DNA of 64,000 bases from Frankiaceae bacterium (GTDB taxonomy: Bacteria; Actinomycetota; Actinomycetes; BP-191): the NCBI GenBank assembly GCA_035556555.1, contig DATMES010000022.1, forward strand, positions 7,577 to 71,576, read 5' to 3'. The notes under the pieces were generated by a model. It did no database searches. It had not been told where the DNA came from and worked only from the letters and a program-made list of their open reading frames with translations. Each line of letters opens with the position of its first letter. Position 1 is the first letter of the stretch. The position numbers and the translations under genes were made by a program. Positions 4,902 through 13,722 of the stretch are shown piece by piece.

Positions 4902-5704
4902 ACGACGTCCCCGTCCCGCAGTGGTGGGGCGTCGCGCTGGCGTCGTTGCTCGTCGCGGCCACTGGCGCGGTCATCGTGCGCGAACGCCTCGGCCTCGGTC
5001 GCGACGTGGTCGAGGCCGCCGTCCGCGCCGTCGTCCAGCTCGTCGTCGTCGGCTTCGTGCTGGTGTTCCTCTTCGAGCGCGCGGGCATCCCGGGCTCGCT
5101 CGGCTGGGTCGGCGGGATGGTGCTGCTCGCGGGTCGTACGGCGGGGCGGCGCGCCCGCGGCCTGCCCGGGGGCGTACGCGCCGCCACCGTCGGCATCGCC
5201 GTCGGCGTCGCCTGCACGCTCGGCCTCGTCGTCGGCGCGGGCGTCCTCGCCGCCGAGCCGCGCGTCGTCGTCCCCGTCGGCGGCATGGTCGTCAGCGCAG
5301 CCATGCAGGGCTGCTCGATCGTGCTGCAACGCGTCGCCGACGAGGTCGCGTCGTCGCGGCCGCTCGTCGAGGCGCGGCTGGCGCTCGGGCTGCCGGGGAC
5401 GGCGGCGTTCGCGCCGCACCGGCGCCTCGCGCTGCGCGCGTCGCTCGCGCCGGCCATCGACCAGACCAAGGTCGTCGGGCTCATCGCGCTGCCCGGCACC
5501 ATGACCGGCCTCATCATCGCGGGCGTCTCGCCGCTTACCGCGATCCGCTACCAGATCGTCGTGCAGTACATGTGGCTCGGCGCCGCCGCGATCTCCGGGC
5601 TGGTCGCCGCGCGGCTCGCGTCGCGGACCGTCTTCGACGACGCGCACCGCCTCCGCCCCCTCGTTACGGCGCGCCGCCGGAAAACTGTCACACCCCGCCC
5701 CTAA
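4898..5704 (+). CDS. ABC transporter permease, FetB/YbbM (UPF0014) family
   Basis: GTG overlaps ATPase stop (GTGA); about 268 aa polytopic membrane protein with the YbbM-like GLIALPGTMTG motif. Confidence 0.75.
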   Translation: MNDVPVPQWWGVALASLLVAATGAVIVRERLGLGRDVVEAAVRAVVQLVVVGFVLVFLFERAGIPGSLGWVGGMVLLAGRTAGRRARGLPGGVRAATVGIAVGVACTLGLVVGAGVLAAEPRVVVPVGGMVVSAAMQGCSIVLQRVADEVASSRPLVEARLALGLPGTAAFAPHRRLALRASLAPAIDQTKVVGLIALPGTMTGLIIAGVSPLTAIRYQIVVQYMWLGAAAISGLVAARLASRTVFDDAHRLRPLVTARRRKTVTPRP

Positions 5705-5715
5705 CGTCCCTCCCT

Positions 5716-7599
5716 ATGGAGCGGACCGGGGGACTGCCGTACGTCCCCGCCCTGGACGGCGTGCGCGGCGTGGCCGTGCTCGCCGTGCTGCTGTTCCACG
5801 GCGGCGTCTCGTGGCTGCCCGGCGGCTTCCTCGGGGTGGACGCGTTCTTCGTGCTGTCGGGGTACCTCATCACTGGGTTGCTCCTCGCGGGCGTGCCGCT
5901 CCGGACCTTCTGGTCCCGGCGCGTGCGGCGGCTGCTGCCTGCCCTCGCCTTGCTCGTGCTCGTCGTCCTGTGTCTCGGCTCCGTGCTCAACGCCGCACCC
6001 CGCGACGCGCTGGGCGCCTTGACCTACCTCTCCAACTGGCGGTCGTACGCCACCGGCGGCGGCTACTTCGCGTCGTTCGCCGATCCGTCGGCGTTCAAGC
6101 ACACGTGGTCGCTGGCCGTGGAGGCGCAGTTCTACGTCGTCTGGCCGCTCCTCGTGGTCTGCGTCTGCCGCCGCGCGCGCGGGCCCGTGCTCGCGGCTGC
6201 AGGCGTGGGGGCGCTCGTGTCGGCGGCGGCGATGGCGGCGTCGTTCCGGCCCGGCGGCGACCCCGCGCGGGCCTACTACGGCACCGACACCCGCATCCAG
6301 GCCCTCCTCGTCGGCGCCGCGCTGGCCGTCGTGCTCGCGCGCGCAGCGGTGCCCCGCGCGATCGGCTGGTCGGGCCTCGCGGGCGTGGGGCTGACGCTGT
6401 GGGTCTGGCACACCGCGTCCGGCACCTCCGACGACCTCTACGGCGGCGGCTTCCTGCTAGCGGCCGTCGCCACCGCGGCCGTCATCGCCTCGGTCGTGCT
6501 GCTGCCGTCCGGGCCGCTGGCCCGCGCGCTGTCCGTACGCCCCCTGCGCGCGGTCGGCATCGTGTCGTATGGCGTCTACCTCTGGCACTGGCCGGTGTTC
6601 CTGCTGCTCACCGGCGCGCGCACCGGCCTGAGCGGCTTCTGGCTCCTCGCGCTGCGGTTCGCGGCGACCGCCGCCTGCACCGCCGTCTCCTGGTACGCCG
6701 TCGAGGTCCCCGCCCGCACCTGGTCGCCCCGGCTGCCGCCGCTGCACGTACGGCGGGTGGCGCTGGCGGGCGGCACGGCGTTCGCGCTGGCGGCGTTCCT
6801 CGCGCTGTCGCCCGGCACGCCGCCGGGCCCGCCATCCGCGGCGGCTGACCCGCTACCCACGGCGTCACCCACGGCCGCGCGGCGCCCCGCCCGGGCGCCC
6901 ACGACGACCGCGCCGACGACACCCGCGCCCACCCGGGCCGCCGGCGGGCCGACGCGGGTGCTGGTCCTCGGCGACTCGGTGGCGCAGACGCTCGCGGCCG
7001 GGCTGCCCGACGGCGACGGGTTCGACGTCGTCAACGCCGCCGCCCTCGGCTGCGGCCTCGTCACCGGCGGGTACCGCTACTTCGGCGGCCAGTACGACGA
7101 CCCGCCGCACTGCGTCCAGTGGCCGCAGACCTGGGGCGCGGCCGTGGCACGGCACCAGCCGGACCTCGTCGCGGTGCTCGTCGGCCGGTGGGAGGTCATG
7201 GACCGCCGCCTCGACGGGGAGTGGCGGCGGCTGGGGGACGCGGCGTTCGACGCGTACGTCACCGCCCAGCTCGACCGCGCCGTCGACGTGGTCTCCGCCG
7301 GCGGCACCAAGGTCGCGCTGGTCACGGCGCCGTACTACCTCCGCGGCGAACGCCCCGACGGCGGCCGCTTCCCCGAGGACGACCCCGCCCGCGTCGACCG
7401 CTTCAACGCCCTGCTCCGCGACGTCGCGGCGAGACGCGGCGTCGCCGTTGTGGAGCTCGGGGCGGCGCTCGCGCCGGAGGGGACGTTCACGCGGCACATC
7501 AACGGCACCCTCGTCCGCTACGACGGCGTCCACATCAGCGGCGCCGGCGCGCGCATGCTGCGCCCCTGGCTCCTCCGCCAGCTCACCGCCGCCCTCTGA
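5716..7599 (+). CDS. Acyltransferase-3 (OafA/OatA-like) membrane domain fused to a C-terminal SGNH hydrolase domain
   Basis: N-terminal 10-TM acyltransferase-3 region (FHGGVSWLPGGFLGVDAFFVLSGYLIT); Pro/Thr linker; SGNH block VLVLGDSVA. Confidence 0.85.
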   Translation: MERTGGLPYVPALDGVRGVAVLAVLLFHGGVSWLPGGFLGVDAFFVLSGYLITGLLLAGVPLRTFWSRRVRRLLPALALLVLVVLCLGSVLNAAPRDALGALTYLSNWRSYATGGGYFASFADPSAFKHTWSLAVEAQFYVVWPLLVVCVCRRARGPVLAAAGVGALVSAAAMAASFRPGGDPARAYYGTDTRIQALLVGAALAVVLARAAVPRAIGWSGLAGVGLTLWVWHTASGTSDDLYGGGFLLAAVATAAVIASVVLLPSGPLARALSVRPLRAVGIVSYGVYLWHWPVFLLLTGARTGLSGFWLLALRFAATAACTAVSWYAVEVPARTWSPRLPPLHVRRVALAGGTAFALAAFLALSPGTPPGPPSAAADPLPTASPTAARRPARAPTTTAPTTPAPTRAAGGPTRVLVLGDSVAQTLAAGLPDGDGFDVVNAAALGCGLVTGGYRYFGGQYDDPPHCVQWPQTWGAAVARHQPDLVAVLVGRWEVMDRRLDGEWRRLGDAAFDAYVTAQLDRAVDVVSAGGTKVALVTAPYYLRGERPDGGRFPEDDPARVDRFNALLRDVAARRGVAVVELGAALAPEGTFTRHINGTLVRYDGVHISGAGARMLRPWLLRQLTAAL

Positions 7600-9445: not shown

Positions 9446-10729
9446 ATGCCCGCCGTCGTCATCGTCGGGGCACAGTGGGGAGACGAGGGGAAGGGCAAGG
9501 CCACCGACCTGCTCGGTGACCGGCTCGACTACGTCGTCCGCTACAACGGCGGCAACAACGCCGGCCACACCGTCGTCATCGGCAGCGAGAAGTACGCGCT
9601 GCACCTGCTCCCCACCGGCATCCTCACGCCGACGCTCGTGCCGGTCATCGGCAACGGCGTCGTCGTCGACCTCGGCGTCCTCTTCGAGGAGATCGACCTG
9701 CTGGACGCGCGCGGCGTCGACACCTCGCGGCTGCTCATCAGCGCCAACGCGCACGTCATCACGCCGTACCACCGCACCATGGACAAGGTGGTCGAGAGGT
9801 TCCTCGGCAACGCCAAGCTCGGCACCACCGGCCGCGGGATCGGGCCCGCGTACGCCGACAAGATGTCCCGCGTCGGGGTGCGGGTGCAGGACCTGTTCGA
9901 CGAGAAGATCCTGCGGCAGAAGGTCGACGGCGCGCTCAAGGCCAAGAACCAGCTGCTCACCAAGGTCTACAACCGCAAGGCCATCGAGACCGACGCGGTC
10001 GTGGACGAGCTGCTGACGTACGCCGACCGCCTCCAGCCGCTCGTCGCCGACACCGCCCTGCTGCTGCACCACGCGCTGCTCGACGGCAAGAACGTCCTGC
10101 TCGAAGGCGGCCAGGCCACCATGCTCGACGTCGACCACGGGACGTATCCGTTCGTCACGTCGTCCAACCCGACCACCGGCGGCGCCTGCACCGGCTCCGG
10201 CATCGCGCCGCGGCACCTCACGCGCGCGATCGGCGTGCTCAAGGCGTACACGACGCGGGTCGGCGAGGGGCCGTTCCCGACCGAGCTGAACGACGAGTGG
10301 GGCACGCTGCTGCGCGAGAACGGCGGCGAGTTCGGCACCACCACGGGGCGGCCACGTCGGTGCGGGTGGTTCGACGCCGTCATCGCCCGCTACGCCGCGC
10401 GCATCAACGGCCTCACCGACTTCTTCCTCACCAAGCTCGACGTGCTCTCCGGCATCGAGCGCATCCCCGTCTGCGTCGGCTACCGCGTCGGCGGCACGGT
10501 CTTCGACGAGATGCCGGTGTCGCAGTCGGACTTCCACCACGCCGAGCCGGTGTACGAAGAGCTCCCCGGCTGGGACGACGACATCACCGGCGCAACGACG
10601 TTCGAGGACCTGCCGAAGAACGCTCAGGCGTACGTCAAGGCGCTGGAGGAGATGTCCGGCGCGCCCATCAGCGCCATCGGCGTCGGCCCCGGCCGTACGC
10701 AGACGGTGGTCGTCAGGGACTTGGTCTAA
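9446..10729 (+). CDS. purA: Adenylosuccinate synthetase
   Basis: GGAGGAG RBS; N-terminal [10 protein letters not shown]-loop; full-length colinear PurA. Confidence 0.95.
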
Positions 10730-12102
10730 CCGAGGTACCCGCTCTTCCGGAGCGTGTCCTCCGCTGCCTCGGTGAGCGCCTCCAGCGCCGCGGCGATGAT
10801 CTCAGTGACGAGGGCGCTGATCTTGACGCGCGCCACTGTACGTAGCGTCGGCTCGACGTCGCGTACGGCGAACTCAGCTCGGCGACCCATCCCGGCGACG
10901 AGGAATGCGGGGCAGTCGTCGTCCGTGGCGATCAGCGTGACGATGCGGATCGCCCGCCGCGCGCCCGCGGGCGGATGCGACTCCGCGTTGATCTGAACGA
11001 TGCGGGGATCCGCAACAGACGACCGGTAGCCCGGCGCATCGAACCGTCCTTGACGGACGTCCACCGTGAGCGACACACCCACCGGTAGCGACAGCGCGGC
11101 TACCTGCTCGGACACTTCTGAGTGAACTGCGTCGAGCAGGCGGTTCGCCACGGCATCAAGCTGGTCGTGGCTGAGCCCGCCAACACCCGTGACGAGGTCC
11201 CTGAGTCGCGCCAACGACCCTGCCTGGTCAGCCTGCGCGCCGGCTCGGACCGTGAGGACAGCAAGATCCACGGTCTCGATGACGCGCTCGACAACGAACG
11301 AGACGAACCTGCGTAGGTCACCGGAGTCGGCGGCCGCTAGGCAGTCGAGGTACTCGTCGCGGTCCTCGCGCAGCAGCATGAACGGCACGCGCAGCGCGCG
11401 GTACAGCGGAACCGACGCGAGCGCGCGGGAGACGCGGCCGTTCCCGTCGGCGAACGGGTGGATCGCCACGAACGAGTAATGCAGGTACGCCGCCTGCACC
11501 ACCGGATGAGCGGCGAGATACGACTCCGACGACAGCGACGCCACGAGCCGCGCCATCTCCGGCGCGACCATGTCCGGCGGCGCGTAGTGGTGGATCTGAC
11601 CCGTCGCGAGACTGGTCGGGTTGTTGGGCAGCGTCTTGTACTGCCCCTTCGGTAGCGGCTGCTCCTGCGGCCCCACCTCGGTGTGTACGACGTACGTGTC
11701 CTGGCTGCGGCAGAGCATCACGTGGAGCTCGCGAATCACGTGCTCGGTGACCGGCCGCGACTCGGCCACGAGGTCGAGCACCCACTCGTACGCCTCGATC
11801 TGGTCCTTGATGATCGCCGCGGCGTTGGGGCCTCGCTCGTTCGCCGCCGCCTCCCAGCCCGCGGCCTCGATGGCGACGGTGCGGGTGAAGCCACGATCGG
11901 TCGTGTAGAGCCCTTCGATGGCTCCGGTGTCGGTGCCCGCGTACCGCATCGCCGTCTTCACGGCGTGCTCGCGCGCCTCCTCGGTCGCCTCGGCGCGAGC
12001 CTGTTCGAGGAGCGCGGCGTACTGGTCGTACGTCGTCGGGTCGAACGGCACCGCTGTCCACGCCGAGATGTCGGGGAACGGCTGGTATCCCTCGTCCGCC
12101 AC
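10726..12102 (-). CDS. Fic/DOC-family protein, class II (N-terminal inhibitory helix), with an uncharacterised ~200-aa C-terminal domain
   Basis: Canonical Fic motif [12 protein letters not shown]; N-terminal TGAIEG matches the (S/T)xxxE(G/N) alpha-inh motif; stop overlaps purA stop. Confidence 0.85.
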
Positions 12103-12223
12103 GCGGCGCCACCTCCGCTCCCGAGTCTAGAGACGGCGAACGGCGCCGGTGCCGAAGCCGGCGCCGCTCGCGGACGTCCGTTGCGAGTGCCGGCCGAAAC
12201 GGCACCCGGGGGTGGGGCCGCGT

Positions 12224-12436
12224 CTAGCAGAAGACCGTTGTCCACATCGAGCCGCCCCAGCACAGGGGCGCCTCGACGGTGACGGGCGTGCAGCCGCCTT
12301 CCGGCCGCGGGACGCAGTCCTGGTAGAGCACGACGTTGCGGTAGCAGGCCTCGGGGGCCACGCACTCGGCGTGCGCGGCGCCGCCGAGGAACACCGCGGA
12401 CAGCAGGGCGCCGACAGCGAGCAGGCGTCTGACCAT
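12224..12436 (-). CDS. Small secreted cysteine-rich peptide (70 aa precursor; 47-aa mature peptide with 6 Cys)
   Basis: Signal peptide MVRRLLAVGALLSAVFLGGAAHA|E; GGAG RBS; GC3 near 100%. Confidence 0.45.
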   Translation of the reverse strand: MVRRLLAVGALLSAVFLGGAAHAECVAPEACYRNVVLYQDCVPRPEGGCTPVTVEAPLCWGGSMWTTVFC

Positions 12437-12483
12437 GGCTGGCTCCGTTCGGTAGGGAATGCCCGGACGTGGGCGATGGCAGG

Positions 12484-13722
12484 ATGCCGCCCGTGAGAGT
12501 TCTTGTCATCGGCAACGGCGCCCGCGAGCACGCCCTCTGCCTCGCCCTGCGCCGCGACCCCGCGGTACGCCACCTCGTCTGCGCCCCAGGCAACGCCGGC
12601 ACCGCGCAGGTCGCCGAGACCCGCCACGTCGATCCCCTCGACGGCGACGCCGTCGCCGACCTCGCCGACGCCGTGGACGCCGACCTCACGGTCATCGGCC
12701 CCGAGGCGCCGCTGGTCGCCGGCGTCGCGGATGCCGTACGCGCCCGCGGCCGCGCCTGCTTCGGCCCCTCCGCCGAGGCGGCCCAGCTGGAGGGCAGCAA
12801 GGCGTTCGCCAAGGACGTCATGGCGCGCGCCGGCGTCCCGACGGCGGGCTACGCCGTCTGCGAGACCGGCGACGAGGTGGAGGCCGCGCTGGACGAGTAC
12901 GAGCCGCCGTACGTCGTCAAGGACGACGGCCTGGCCGGCGGCAAGGGCGTCGTCGTCACCACGGACCGCGCCGCCGCCGCCGAGCACGCCCGCGGCAAGC
13001 GGGTCGTGATCGAGGAGTACCTGGACGGCCCCGAGGTGAGCCTGTTCGGTATCACGGATGGCACGACGGTGCTGCCGCTGCAGCCCGCGCAGGACTTCAA
13101 GCGCATCGGCGACGGCGACACCGGCCCGAACACCGGCGGCATGGGCGCCTACTCGCCGCTCCCCTGGGCCGACCCCGGCCTGACCGACGAGGTCACGAGA
13201 ACGGTCCTCCAGCCGACGATCGACGAGATGCGCCGCAGGGGAACGCCGTTCCAGGGCCTGCTCTACGCCGGTCTCGCGATCACGAAGAACGGCCCGAAGG
13301 TCATCGAGTTCAACGCCCGCTTCGGCGACCCCGAGACGCAGGTCGTCCTCGCCCGCCTGAAGACCCCGCTGGCGCAGCTGCTCCACCAGGCCGCCACCGG
13401 CAGCCTCGCAGGCACCACCCTGGACTGGGACGACCAGGCAGCCGTCACGGTCGTCATGGCCGCGCTCGGCTACCCGGGCAAGCCCACCACGGGCCAGCCG
13501 ATCGACGGGCTGACCGAAGCCGCCAAGGCAGCAGACGTCCTCCACGCCGGCACCCGCCTCGAGGACGGCAAGGTCCTCACGAACGGCGGCCGGGTCCTCT
13601 CGGTCACGGCCACGGGCTCCGACCTGAACACCGCAAGAACGAAGGCGTACGAGGCCGTCGGCCGGATCTCCTTCCCCGGCGCCCAGTGGCGCACGGACAT
13701 CGCGGCGACAGCCGCCGGTTAG
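12484..13722 (+). CDS. purD: Phosphoribosylamine-glycine ligase
   Basis: RVLVIGNGAREHAL N-terminus; ATP-grasp fold; colinear PurD. Confidence 0.95.
   Translation: MPPVRVLVIGNGAREHALCLALRRDPAVRHLVCAPGNAGTAQVAETRHVDPLDGDAVADLADAVDADLTVIGPEAPLVAGVADAVRARGRACFGPSAEAAQLEGSKAFAKDVMARAGVPTAGYAVCETGDEVEAALDEYEPPYVVKDDGLAGGKGVVVTTDRAAAAEHARGKRVVIEEYLDGPEVSLFGITDGTTVLPLQPAQDFKRIGDGDTGPNTGGMGAYSPLPWADPGLTDEVTRTVLQPTIDEMRRRGTPFQGLLYAGLAITKNGPKVIEFNARFGDPETQVVLARLKTPLAQLLHQAATGSLAGTTLDWDDQAAVTVVMAALGYPGKPTTGQPIDGLTEAAKAADVLHAGTRLEDGKVLTNGGRVLSVTATGSDLNTARTKAYEAVGRISFPGAQWRTDIAATAAG

Follow-up and report, generated by a model that had tools for sequence, protein, structure and literature searches.

What does a 70-codon open reading frame (ORF) lying between purD and a fic gene encode, and has it anything to do with fic? 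The question is raised by a stretch of 64,000 nt (hereafter the window) from a Frankiaceae bacterium (GenBank assembly GCA_035556555.1, contig DATMES010000022.1, positions 7,577 to 71,576), in which an earlier note had read a gene for a small secreted six-cysteine peptide at window positions 12224–12436. We find that this small ORF is a genuine gene, well beyond chance, and that its product is a member of a previously undescribed, narrowly distributed family of uncultured soil actinobacteria. The category to which the family belongs, that of small secreted disulfide-rich proteins, is itself familiar. As to what the gene does, the reading we favour, with about an even chance of being correct, is that of a stand-alone gene for an exported, disulfide-locked hairpin mini-protein that may be an extracellular binder.

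The ORF begins with an ATG on the minus strand and runs for 70 codons; the 70-aa precursor (MVRRLLAVGALLSAVFLGGAAHAECVAPEACYRNVVLYQDCVPRPEGGCTPVTVEAPLCWGGSMWTTVFC) matches the NCBI hypothetical protein VNQ77_07175, from a Frankiaceae metagenome-assembled genome (MAG), at 100% identity. The G+C content at its three codon positions (GC1/2/3 of 0.68/0.55/0.94), a pattern repeated in nine orthologues, is the coding signature of a high-GC actinobacterium and tells the true frame apart from the many chance ORFs of high-GC DNA. The GGAG ribosome-binding site (RBS) reported earlier is present upstream of the start codon and recurs at the equal place in most related loci, with variant forms in two of them (L002 and L007). 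What puts the ORF far beyond chance is that none of its six cysteines varies in an alignment of 50 sequences, some with as little as ∼30% identity. The earlier note had judged the ORF unlikely to be spurious because of its RBS and high GC3, and had given its place and length, a Sec-type signal peptide with a predicted AHA/E site, a mature 47-aa part with six cysteines, and the same orientation as a fic gene some 120 bp away; all of this agrees with what we see (fic starts 121 nt downstream, on the same strand). It had also held that absence of the ORF from close relatives would speak against the gene, and the ORF was found in every related locus recovered.

The N terminus of the precursor has the tripartite layout of a Sec/signal peptidase I substrate, as read from the sequence itself: R3 and R4, a 13-residue hydrophobic core (LLAVGALLSAVFL), and A-H-A at positions −3 to −1, after which cleavage (AHA/E) is predicted. 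The same elements recur across the family: 144 of 152 members have A-x-A no more than nine residues ahead of the first cysteine, and 146 of 153 have K or R somewhere in their first eight positions. A Sec-exported product is therefore predicted, with a signal conserved family-wide. Two other routes were considered and rejected. The window precursor contains V-R-R-L-L-A, but export by the Tat route is unlikely because only 34 of 132 members carry RR; a six-cysteine protein would be expected to fold after export, which further argues against Tat. A lipoprotein is contradicted by the lack of a lipobox (AHAE-C precedes the first cysteine) and by the varying distance from A-x-A to the cysteine across the family.

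A search with the single sequence returned eight relatives (64–77% identity), and a profile search 17 close members and one distant member. Two related contigs carried extra tandem genes of ∼80 aa, paralogues sharing the cysteine frame, and a profile that included them brought the family to ∼50 members. An exhaustive hidden Markov model search of 1.84 billion cluster representatives gave 113 matches at E ≤ 1e-3, of which 40 were at E ≤ 1e-10. Apart from the six cysteines, just two columns of the 50-sequence alignment are invariant, the start Met and one Ala of A-x-A; the frame common to the family is a Sec signal followed by C-9-C-(9-13)-C-7-C-(9-12)-C-x-C. Six cysteines are present in 132 of 151 mature domains, eight in 15, ten in one and seven in three. 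The even count in 148 of the 151 points to disulfides and away from free thiols or metal ligands, and contradicts a metal-binding thiol protein, a candidate that we rejected.

All members come from metagenomes, the named sources being this Frankiaceae MAG and an Actinomycetota MAG. In GTDB, with one representative genome per species, there was no true match and one chance 18-aa match in a Nitrospirota genome; no second copy was found in the window, and no family member in viral contigs. The window peptide had no match in Pfam, NCBIfam, PADLOC or PHROGs; 46 diverse members produced nothing significant in Pfam and NCBIfam, and a profile search of PDB sequences gave nothing at E ≤ 10. A 1415-aa repetitive protein from the profile search (P0092) was a spurious match, and a metagenome scan match (L023; 54% GC, encoding a TolC-like protein) was a false positive; further metagenome scans yielded two alignments too divergent to use and, in one case, no match. 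The family is therefore new, having neither a Pfam model nor a structural relative, and is known so far only from uncultured, probably mostly actinobacterial metagenomes.

The six cysteines of the mature window peptide stand at positions 2, 8, 18, 26, 36 and 47 (C-5-C-9-C-7-C-9-C-10-C). The chain is acidic (pI 4.25, net charge −3) and mildly hydrophobic (grand average of hydropathy, GRAVY, +0.23), with aromatic residues at Y9, W37 and W42 and an aromatic C terminus; acidity is typical of the family, whose mature peptides have a median pI of 4.1 and fall below pI 6 in 92% of cases. AlphaFold gave a poor model of the full-length precursor (pLDDT 64). With the mature-domain alignment as input, AlphaFold2 reached pLDDT 78, and ∼90 for residues 11–30; this model has strands at 8–20, 26–38 and 43–46, that is, a long β-hairpin with a short third strand and no helix. 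Searches of PDB folds gave no match to any solved structure, and no knottin came up in them.

The earlier note had suggested a disulfide-knotted fold, which the model does not bear out. The loop between C3 and C4 has seven residues in 118 of the 132 six-cysteine members, and in the same 132 the lengths of C2–C3 (8–20) and C4–C5 (9–26) covary (Spearman rho 0.88, a correlation that shared ancestry inflates). Because of the hairpin model, the fixed C3–C4 loop and the covarying C2–C3 and C4–C5 arms, a hairpin with a nested ladder of disulfides (C1–C6, C2–C5, C3–C4) probably fits better than a knot. Set against the pattern of an inhibitor cystine knot (C1–C4, C2–C5, C3–C6, one disulfide threading the ring made by the other two), the hairpin and the covariation likewise favour the ladder, with connectivity in either case a prediction. 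The exported and cleaved 47-residue chain would then be oxidised outside the cytoplasm and would form a three-stranded β-sheet around the long hairpin, locked by three nested disulfides, of which C3–C4 would close the fixed seven-residue tip loop, C2–C5 would clamp the base of the hairpin and C1–C6 would tie the chain ends.

Substitution rates were estimated by NG86, in which the extreme GC3 biases dN/dS (the ratio of nonsynonymous to synonymous substitution rates) somewhat upward. Against the window allele, dN/dS was 0.39–1.04 for the whole peptide gene (dS 0.27–0.48) and 0.31–1.05 for its mature part (dS 0.24–0.50), compared with 0.13–0.27 for purA (dS 0.23–0.37); over all 45 pairs among ten sequences, the peptide median was 0.64. 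The amino acid sequence of the peptide thus changes several times faster than that of its housekeeping neighbour. Within the window subfamily the variable mature positions are 21 and 23 (hairpin tip), 27, 30 and 32 (one face of strand 2) and 44–46, while positions 29, 31 and 33–42 are essentially fixed, the last of these being the block APLCWGGSMW. In terms of the model, one hairpin face (V29, V31, A33) and this block are held fixed, with rapid variation in the tip loop and on the opposite face.

A rigid hairpin, a variable loop of fixed length and tandem duplication are traits typical of canonical protease inhibitors (Bowman-Birk, SFTI, Kazal). Our best guess on function, a tentative one held with more doubt than belief, is an extracellular protease inhibitor or binder. 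The peptide gene would act alone, with no dependence on fic and no need of a modification, immunity or transport partner; its product, as a protease-resistant extracellular module, would block a foreign or self extracellular protease via its exposed variable loop, and tandem paralogues would give different specificities.

Several neighbours of family members point the same way. A 112-aa gene in the same gap of locus L007 (9236–9574) has an Inhibitor_I36 (SMPI family) match of 4.1e-5, above the Pfam cutoff, and would encode a β-γ-crystallin-like secreted protein. Genes with a BsuPI domain (proteinase-inhibitor family PF12690) lie directly upstream of peptide genes, on the same strand, in L005 (2–517; 1.5e-10) and L006 (2–592; 1.4e-9); the two BsuPI proteins share 40% identity, and the peptide genes belong to two subfamilies. 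The distant member P0127 divergently adjoins a gene for a lipobox-bearing S1 serine protease with TAAHC, DFALIEL and GDSGAP motifs (L020 314–1099, minus strand; also in L021 and L022). An ABC ATPase gene follows the protease gene in L021 and L022, an RND membrane-fusion gene lies beyond the peptide gene in L020, and the source of P0127 is probably a Gram-negative organism.

A number of points weigh against this picture of an exported, ladder-braced binder or inhibitor. The protease and inhibitor neighbours are single anecdotes, none of them in the window, and the peptide resembles no known inhibitor and no solved structure in sequence or fold; in particular, nothing significant links it to the MEROPS peptidase-inhibitor families represented in Pfam (e.g. 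I16 SSI, I36 SMPI, Kazal, BBI). The mature-domain model is weaker towards its ends, at only pLDDT 62–68, and the disulfide connectivity is itself a prediction. To these we add the inflation of the loop-length correlation and the upward bias of dN/dS given above. Finally, the window copy lacks the conserved promoter-like box described below, so that expression in this genome is uncertain. Nothing about the family overturns expectations, and its function is something we infer.

The same properties could suit a Sec-dependent unmodified bacteriocin or antimicrobial mini-protein, like actifensins or laterosporulin, that kills competitors. Such a peptide would be small, secreted and held by three disulfides, and bacterial three-disulfide defensins exist (PMC11561630); the rapid evolution, the tandem paralogues of varying copy number and the position beside a defence-type Fic gene in a variable islet would also be in keeping with it. 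We nevertheless consider it unlikely, given the acidity of the mature peptides, the lack of a sequence or fold match to any solved bacteriocin, and the lack of an immunity or transporter gene at any purD–purA locus. Class II bacteriocins have linked immunity or transporter genes and are usually cationic, whereas the flanks here are purine-biosynthesis genes, fic or unrelated genes. A CS-alpha-beta defensin was rejected, since the cysteine spacing (5/9/7/9/10) contains neither CxxxC nor CxC and the model has no helix. A precursor of a ribosomally synthesised and post-translationally modified peptide (RiPP) was rejected as well: no modifying enzyme (radical SAM, LanM, cyclodehydratase etc.) occurs at any recovered locus, and the N terminus is a classical Sec signal. 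With no modification, immunity or ABC-transporter genes at the purD–purA loci, an acidic product, and no defensin motifs or helix, a classical bacteriocin or RiPP is thus unlikely.

The mild hydrophobicity and the aromatic residues (Y9, W37, W42 and the C terminus), displayed on a small disulfide-braced three-stranded sheet, might instead indicate a mini-protein of the cell surface or matrix, be it a module that binds carbohydrate or cell wall (CBM1-like in role) or a surface-active coat component (hydrophobin- or chaplin-like in role). Tandem copies would fit, and so would the strong consensus-like promoter of relatives, which suggests high expression. We think such a role improbable, as the peptide shows no similarity to the CBM (carbohydrate-binding module), chaplin, rodlin or hydrophobin families, W37 and W42 are specific to the subfamily and not kept across the wider family, and exposed residues that change so rapidly are more in keeping with an arms-race target than with a structural part. 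An extracellular signalling peptide (a pheromone or quorum-type cue) would likewise be small and secreted, with variable residues that differ between lineages. It is very unlikely: no receptor kinase, transporter or processing gene is linked at any locus, at 47–60 aa and with three disulfides the chain far exceeds known Gram-positive pheromones in size, and divergent tandem paralogues without cognate receptors would be atypical.

The remaining part of the question concerns fic. The neighbouring gene is a class II Fic gene, its product matching Pfam Fic (PF02661, 4.9e-17) and PADLOC SoFic (5.6e-28), with the inhibitory motif TGAIEG and the active-site motif HPFADGNGR in the translation. The earlier note had implied a functional tie by proposing a search for homologues next to Fic genes in other actinomycetes. 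Homologues do lie beside SoFic-like fic genes in the window and five other locus types, but they are also found where fic is missing, and the tie itself is not supported. With the peptide gene (PEP) drawn on the plus strand, the order is purD(−), PEP, fic, purA(−) in the window, in L011 (which ends within fic) and in L015/16; purD, PEP83, PEP83, PEP72, fic, purA in L002/3, a composite of two overlapping contigs; and purD, PEP84, PEP80, fic, then the 112-aa gene in L007. In L013/14, fic lies upstream (fic, PEP74, purA). There is no fic in L008–10 (purD, PEP84, PEP72, purA), L001 (RHH gene ... PEP72, purA) or L012 (PEP73, 328-aa gene, purA), and in L006 the setting is different. Distant members have unrelated neighbours: leuS, an acetyltransferase gene and comEA surround one of them, and genes for ABC and RND transporters surround another. 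The peptide genes are residents of the purD–purA gap, and fic is a variable companion.

In relatives the purD–purA gap appears as a small variable hotspot, with one to three peptide paralogues and with or without fic. Its other cargo includes an RHH_1 (CopG/FitA-like) gene in L001 and two uncharacterised genes, of 299 aa in L001 and 328 aa in L012. In L008, the adenylosuccinate lyase gene (4945–6230, minus strand) appears as two ORFs, one for Lyase_1 (287 aa) and one for ADSL_C (148 aa); a frameshift may have split it, or the assembly may be wrong there. In the window, purD (GARS_N/A/C domains) is divergent from the peptide gene and starts 45–54 nt upstream of it. The program-made ORF list starts purD at GTG 12469 (plus strand); alignment with relatives suggests that the conserved in-frame start is ATG 12482 (MPPVRVLVIGNG) or GTG 12491.

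Substitution rates separate the two genes further. Leaving out one near-identical partial Fic pair (L011; dN/dS 0.11, dS 0.17), fic has a dN/dS of 0.34–0.40 against the window allele and a dS of 0.73–0.93, the latter two to three times that of the flanking purA, so that fic is more diverged than either flank. This suggests that fic is exchangeable defence cargo rather than vertically inherited. As its dS is well above that of the peptide (0.26–0.50), the histories of the two genes are uncoupled.

That the peptide might regulate the adjacent Fic or serve as its antitoxin, in the manner of VbhA or the AS1 of E. coli SoFic, is suggested by a small gene that adjoins a SoFic-like fic both in the window and in five further, distinct locus types; a small neighbouring protein does neutralise EcSofic (PMC12249575). 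Such a partnership is extremely unlikely. A conserved export signal and six cysteines are ill-suited to a cytoplasmic antitoxin; the peptide has no (S/T)xxxE(G/N) motif, while this Fic carries its own; peptide genes occur in loci without fic and, among distant members, far from any fic; the two genes have separate promoter-like and terminator-like elements; and their dS values are uncoupled. A Fic antitoxin, whether VbhA-like (class I) or AS1-like, was accordingly rejected, AS1 being set apart by its description. For annotation this means that the peptide gene is to be kept separate from the adjacent Fic defence gene and not mis-assigned as its antitoxin.

A broader role beside fic can be imagined, in which tandem, fast-diversifying cystine-ladder mini-proteins are the extracellular arm of a purD–purA 'conflict islet', blocking proteases of phages or competitors or masking receptors, and are co-selected with the intracellular SoFic-like abortive-infection gene. 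We regard this as a long shot; if true, the mini-proteins would represent a bacterial effector fold, rich in disulfides and serving defence, that had not been known before.

The elements around the peptide gene bear both on its independence from fic and on its expression. A promoter-like box, TTGACG-N17/18-GACAGT, occurs within one mismatch ∼45 nt before the peptide ATG in 12 related loci; in L013 it sits between fic and the peptide gene. On the other side, a 21-nt G+C-rich hairpin (GGTGCCGATTCGGCCGGCACC) follows the gene of the 72–74-aa type in the window and 11 other loci (not in L001 or L006), whether the next gene is fic or a convergent purA. A second hairpin is kept in seven of seven aligned loci; it has no U-tract after it, so a simple terminator scan skips it. 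The folding z-score of the 136-nt spacer is −3.8, and the first hairpin is part of the consensus fold, the stems being mostly invariant and with little covariation (a covariation test is uninformative on invariant stems). Across 12142–12206 (minus strand) the two hairpins, with TTCGG-containing loops, are near-invariant although the proteins of the loci are 64–77% identical. Such conservation is unusually strong for a plain terminator. Around the locus, Rfam gave no match and a consensus terminator scan found nothing. Loci containing fic have a CTAGACTCGG box (−10-like TAGACT; window 12121–12130) and then an RBS (GGAGGTGG, 12109–12116) before the fic GTG. Each gene thus has signals of its own, a promoter-like box and 3′ hairpins for the peptide gene and the TAGACT box and RBS for fic, from which we infer that the two are separate transcription units.

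In the window itself the promoter-like box is missing. Alignment with the closest relative, L011 (window 12437–12490, L011 584–712), shows that 24 nt containing the box are deleted, with a junction at ∼12462/12463; it is because of this deletion that the peptide and purD start codons are so close. A scan of 10600–12700 for a consensus promoter found no sigma-70 consensus site. Expression in the window genome may be reduced or come from another promoter. One might go further and take the ORF for a chance product of a high-GC genome, whose DNA is full of long chance ORFs, or for a relic silenced in this genome, as the missing box and the empty promoter scan would allow. We find this quite unlikely, given the frame-specific GC3, the conserved RBS and a family that as a whole is clearly coding. 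The window ORF is not a decayed pseudogene, because it is intact, keeps every family-invariant residue, and shows the lowest dN/dS of all pairs to L011 (0.39 overall, 0.31 in the mature part).

Table 1. Coordinates of the peptide gene, its parts and adjoining features in the window
Feature	Position	Strand	Basis
Peptide coding sequence, complete, 70-aa precursor, stop TAG at 12224–12226	12224..12436	−	ORF list, homologues
Sec-type signal peptide, codons 1–23 (MVRRLLAVGALLSAVFLGGAAHA), predicted signal peptidase I cleavage after AHA	12368..12436	−	Tripartite layout
Mature 47-aa domain, acidic, six cysteines	12227..12367	−	Sequence, family alignment, AlphaFold2
Shine-Dalgarno GGAG, 6-nt spacer to ATG, centre ∼8 nt upstream	12443..12446	−	Read from sequence
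Upstream site where the family promoter-like box is missing, 24-nt deletion	12463..12482	−	Alignment of upstream regions
Hairpin 1, GGTGCCGTTTCGGCCGGCACT, terminator-like, begins 18 nt past the stop codon	12186..12206	−	Comparison of loci
Hairpin 2, GGCGCCGG-CTTCGGCA-CCGGCGCC, second G+C-rich stem-loop of the 3′ region	12142..12165	−	Comparison of loci
fic, class II SoFic-like, a neighbour and not part of the peptide unit	10726..12102	−	Pfam, PADLOC, motifs

Much work has gone into the small secreted disulfide-rich proteins of fungi, plants and animals, whereas those of bacteria are still sparsely catalogued. If both the ladder hairpin and a role as inhibitor or antagonist were true, the family would offer a compact, gene-encoded and modification-free scaffold for protease inhibition or peptide engineering, and would show that housekeeping purine operons can host a hotspot of fast-evolving secreted proteins.

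Several known systems resemble the window peptide in part. AS1, a protein of 47 aa next to E. coli SoFic, acts as an antitoxin (PMC12249575); VbhA and AS1 share with the present gene a short length and a place adjoining fic, and AS1 has the same 47 aa as the mature peptide. Unlike these antitoxins, the protein described here is predicted to be exported, is cysteine-rich, lacks the inhibitory motif, is found without fic and is probably transcribed separately. Bacterial cis-defensins (actifensins, xanthusin) are also ribosomally made and unmodified, with six cysteines and three disulfides; some are from Actinomycetota, and many have signal peptides (PMC11561630). The window peptide differs from them in being acidic rather than cationic, in its cysteine spacing, without CxxxC or CxC, in its predicted lack of a helix, and in giving no sequence or fold match.

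Closer in their general plan are the Streptomyces inhibitors SSI (I16) and SMPI (I36) and tendamistat, which are likewise actinobacterial, Sec-exported, all-β and disulfide-stabilised products of stand-alone genes. In the Bowman-Birk and SFTI-1 inhibitors the tip of a β-hairpin is a disulfide-closed loop with seven residues between the cysteines; the loop is hypervariable, and the units are tandem or duplicated. The present family shares the predicted seven-residue disulfide-closed tip, the variable loop and the tandem units with these inhibitors, which are plant proteins without homology to it. The canonical T-P1-S-x-P-P-Q is not matched by its loop, which reads VPRPEGG in the window, VPLPDGG in relatives and VY.GS.T in the wider family; inhibition is here putative. 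In theta-defensins, protegrin and tachyplesin, which are cationic animal peptides of 16–18 residues, nested ladder-like disulfides span an antiparallel hairpin. The topology predicted for the window peptide is the same as theirs, in a bacterial and acidic family of 47–60 residues with a third strand and a C1–C6 clasp of the chain ends.

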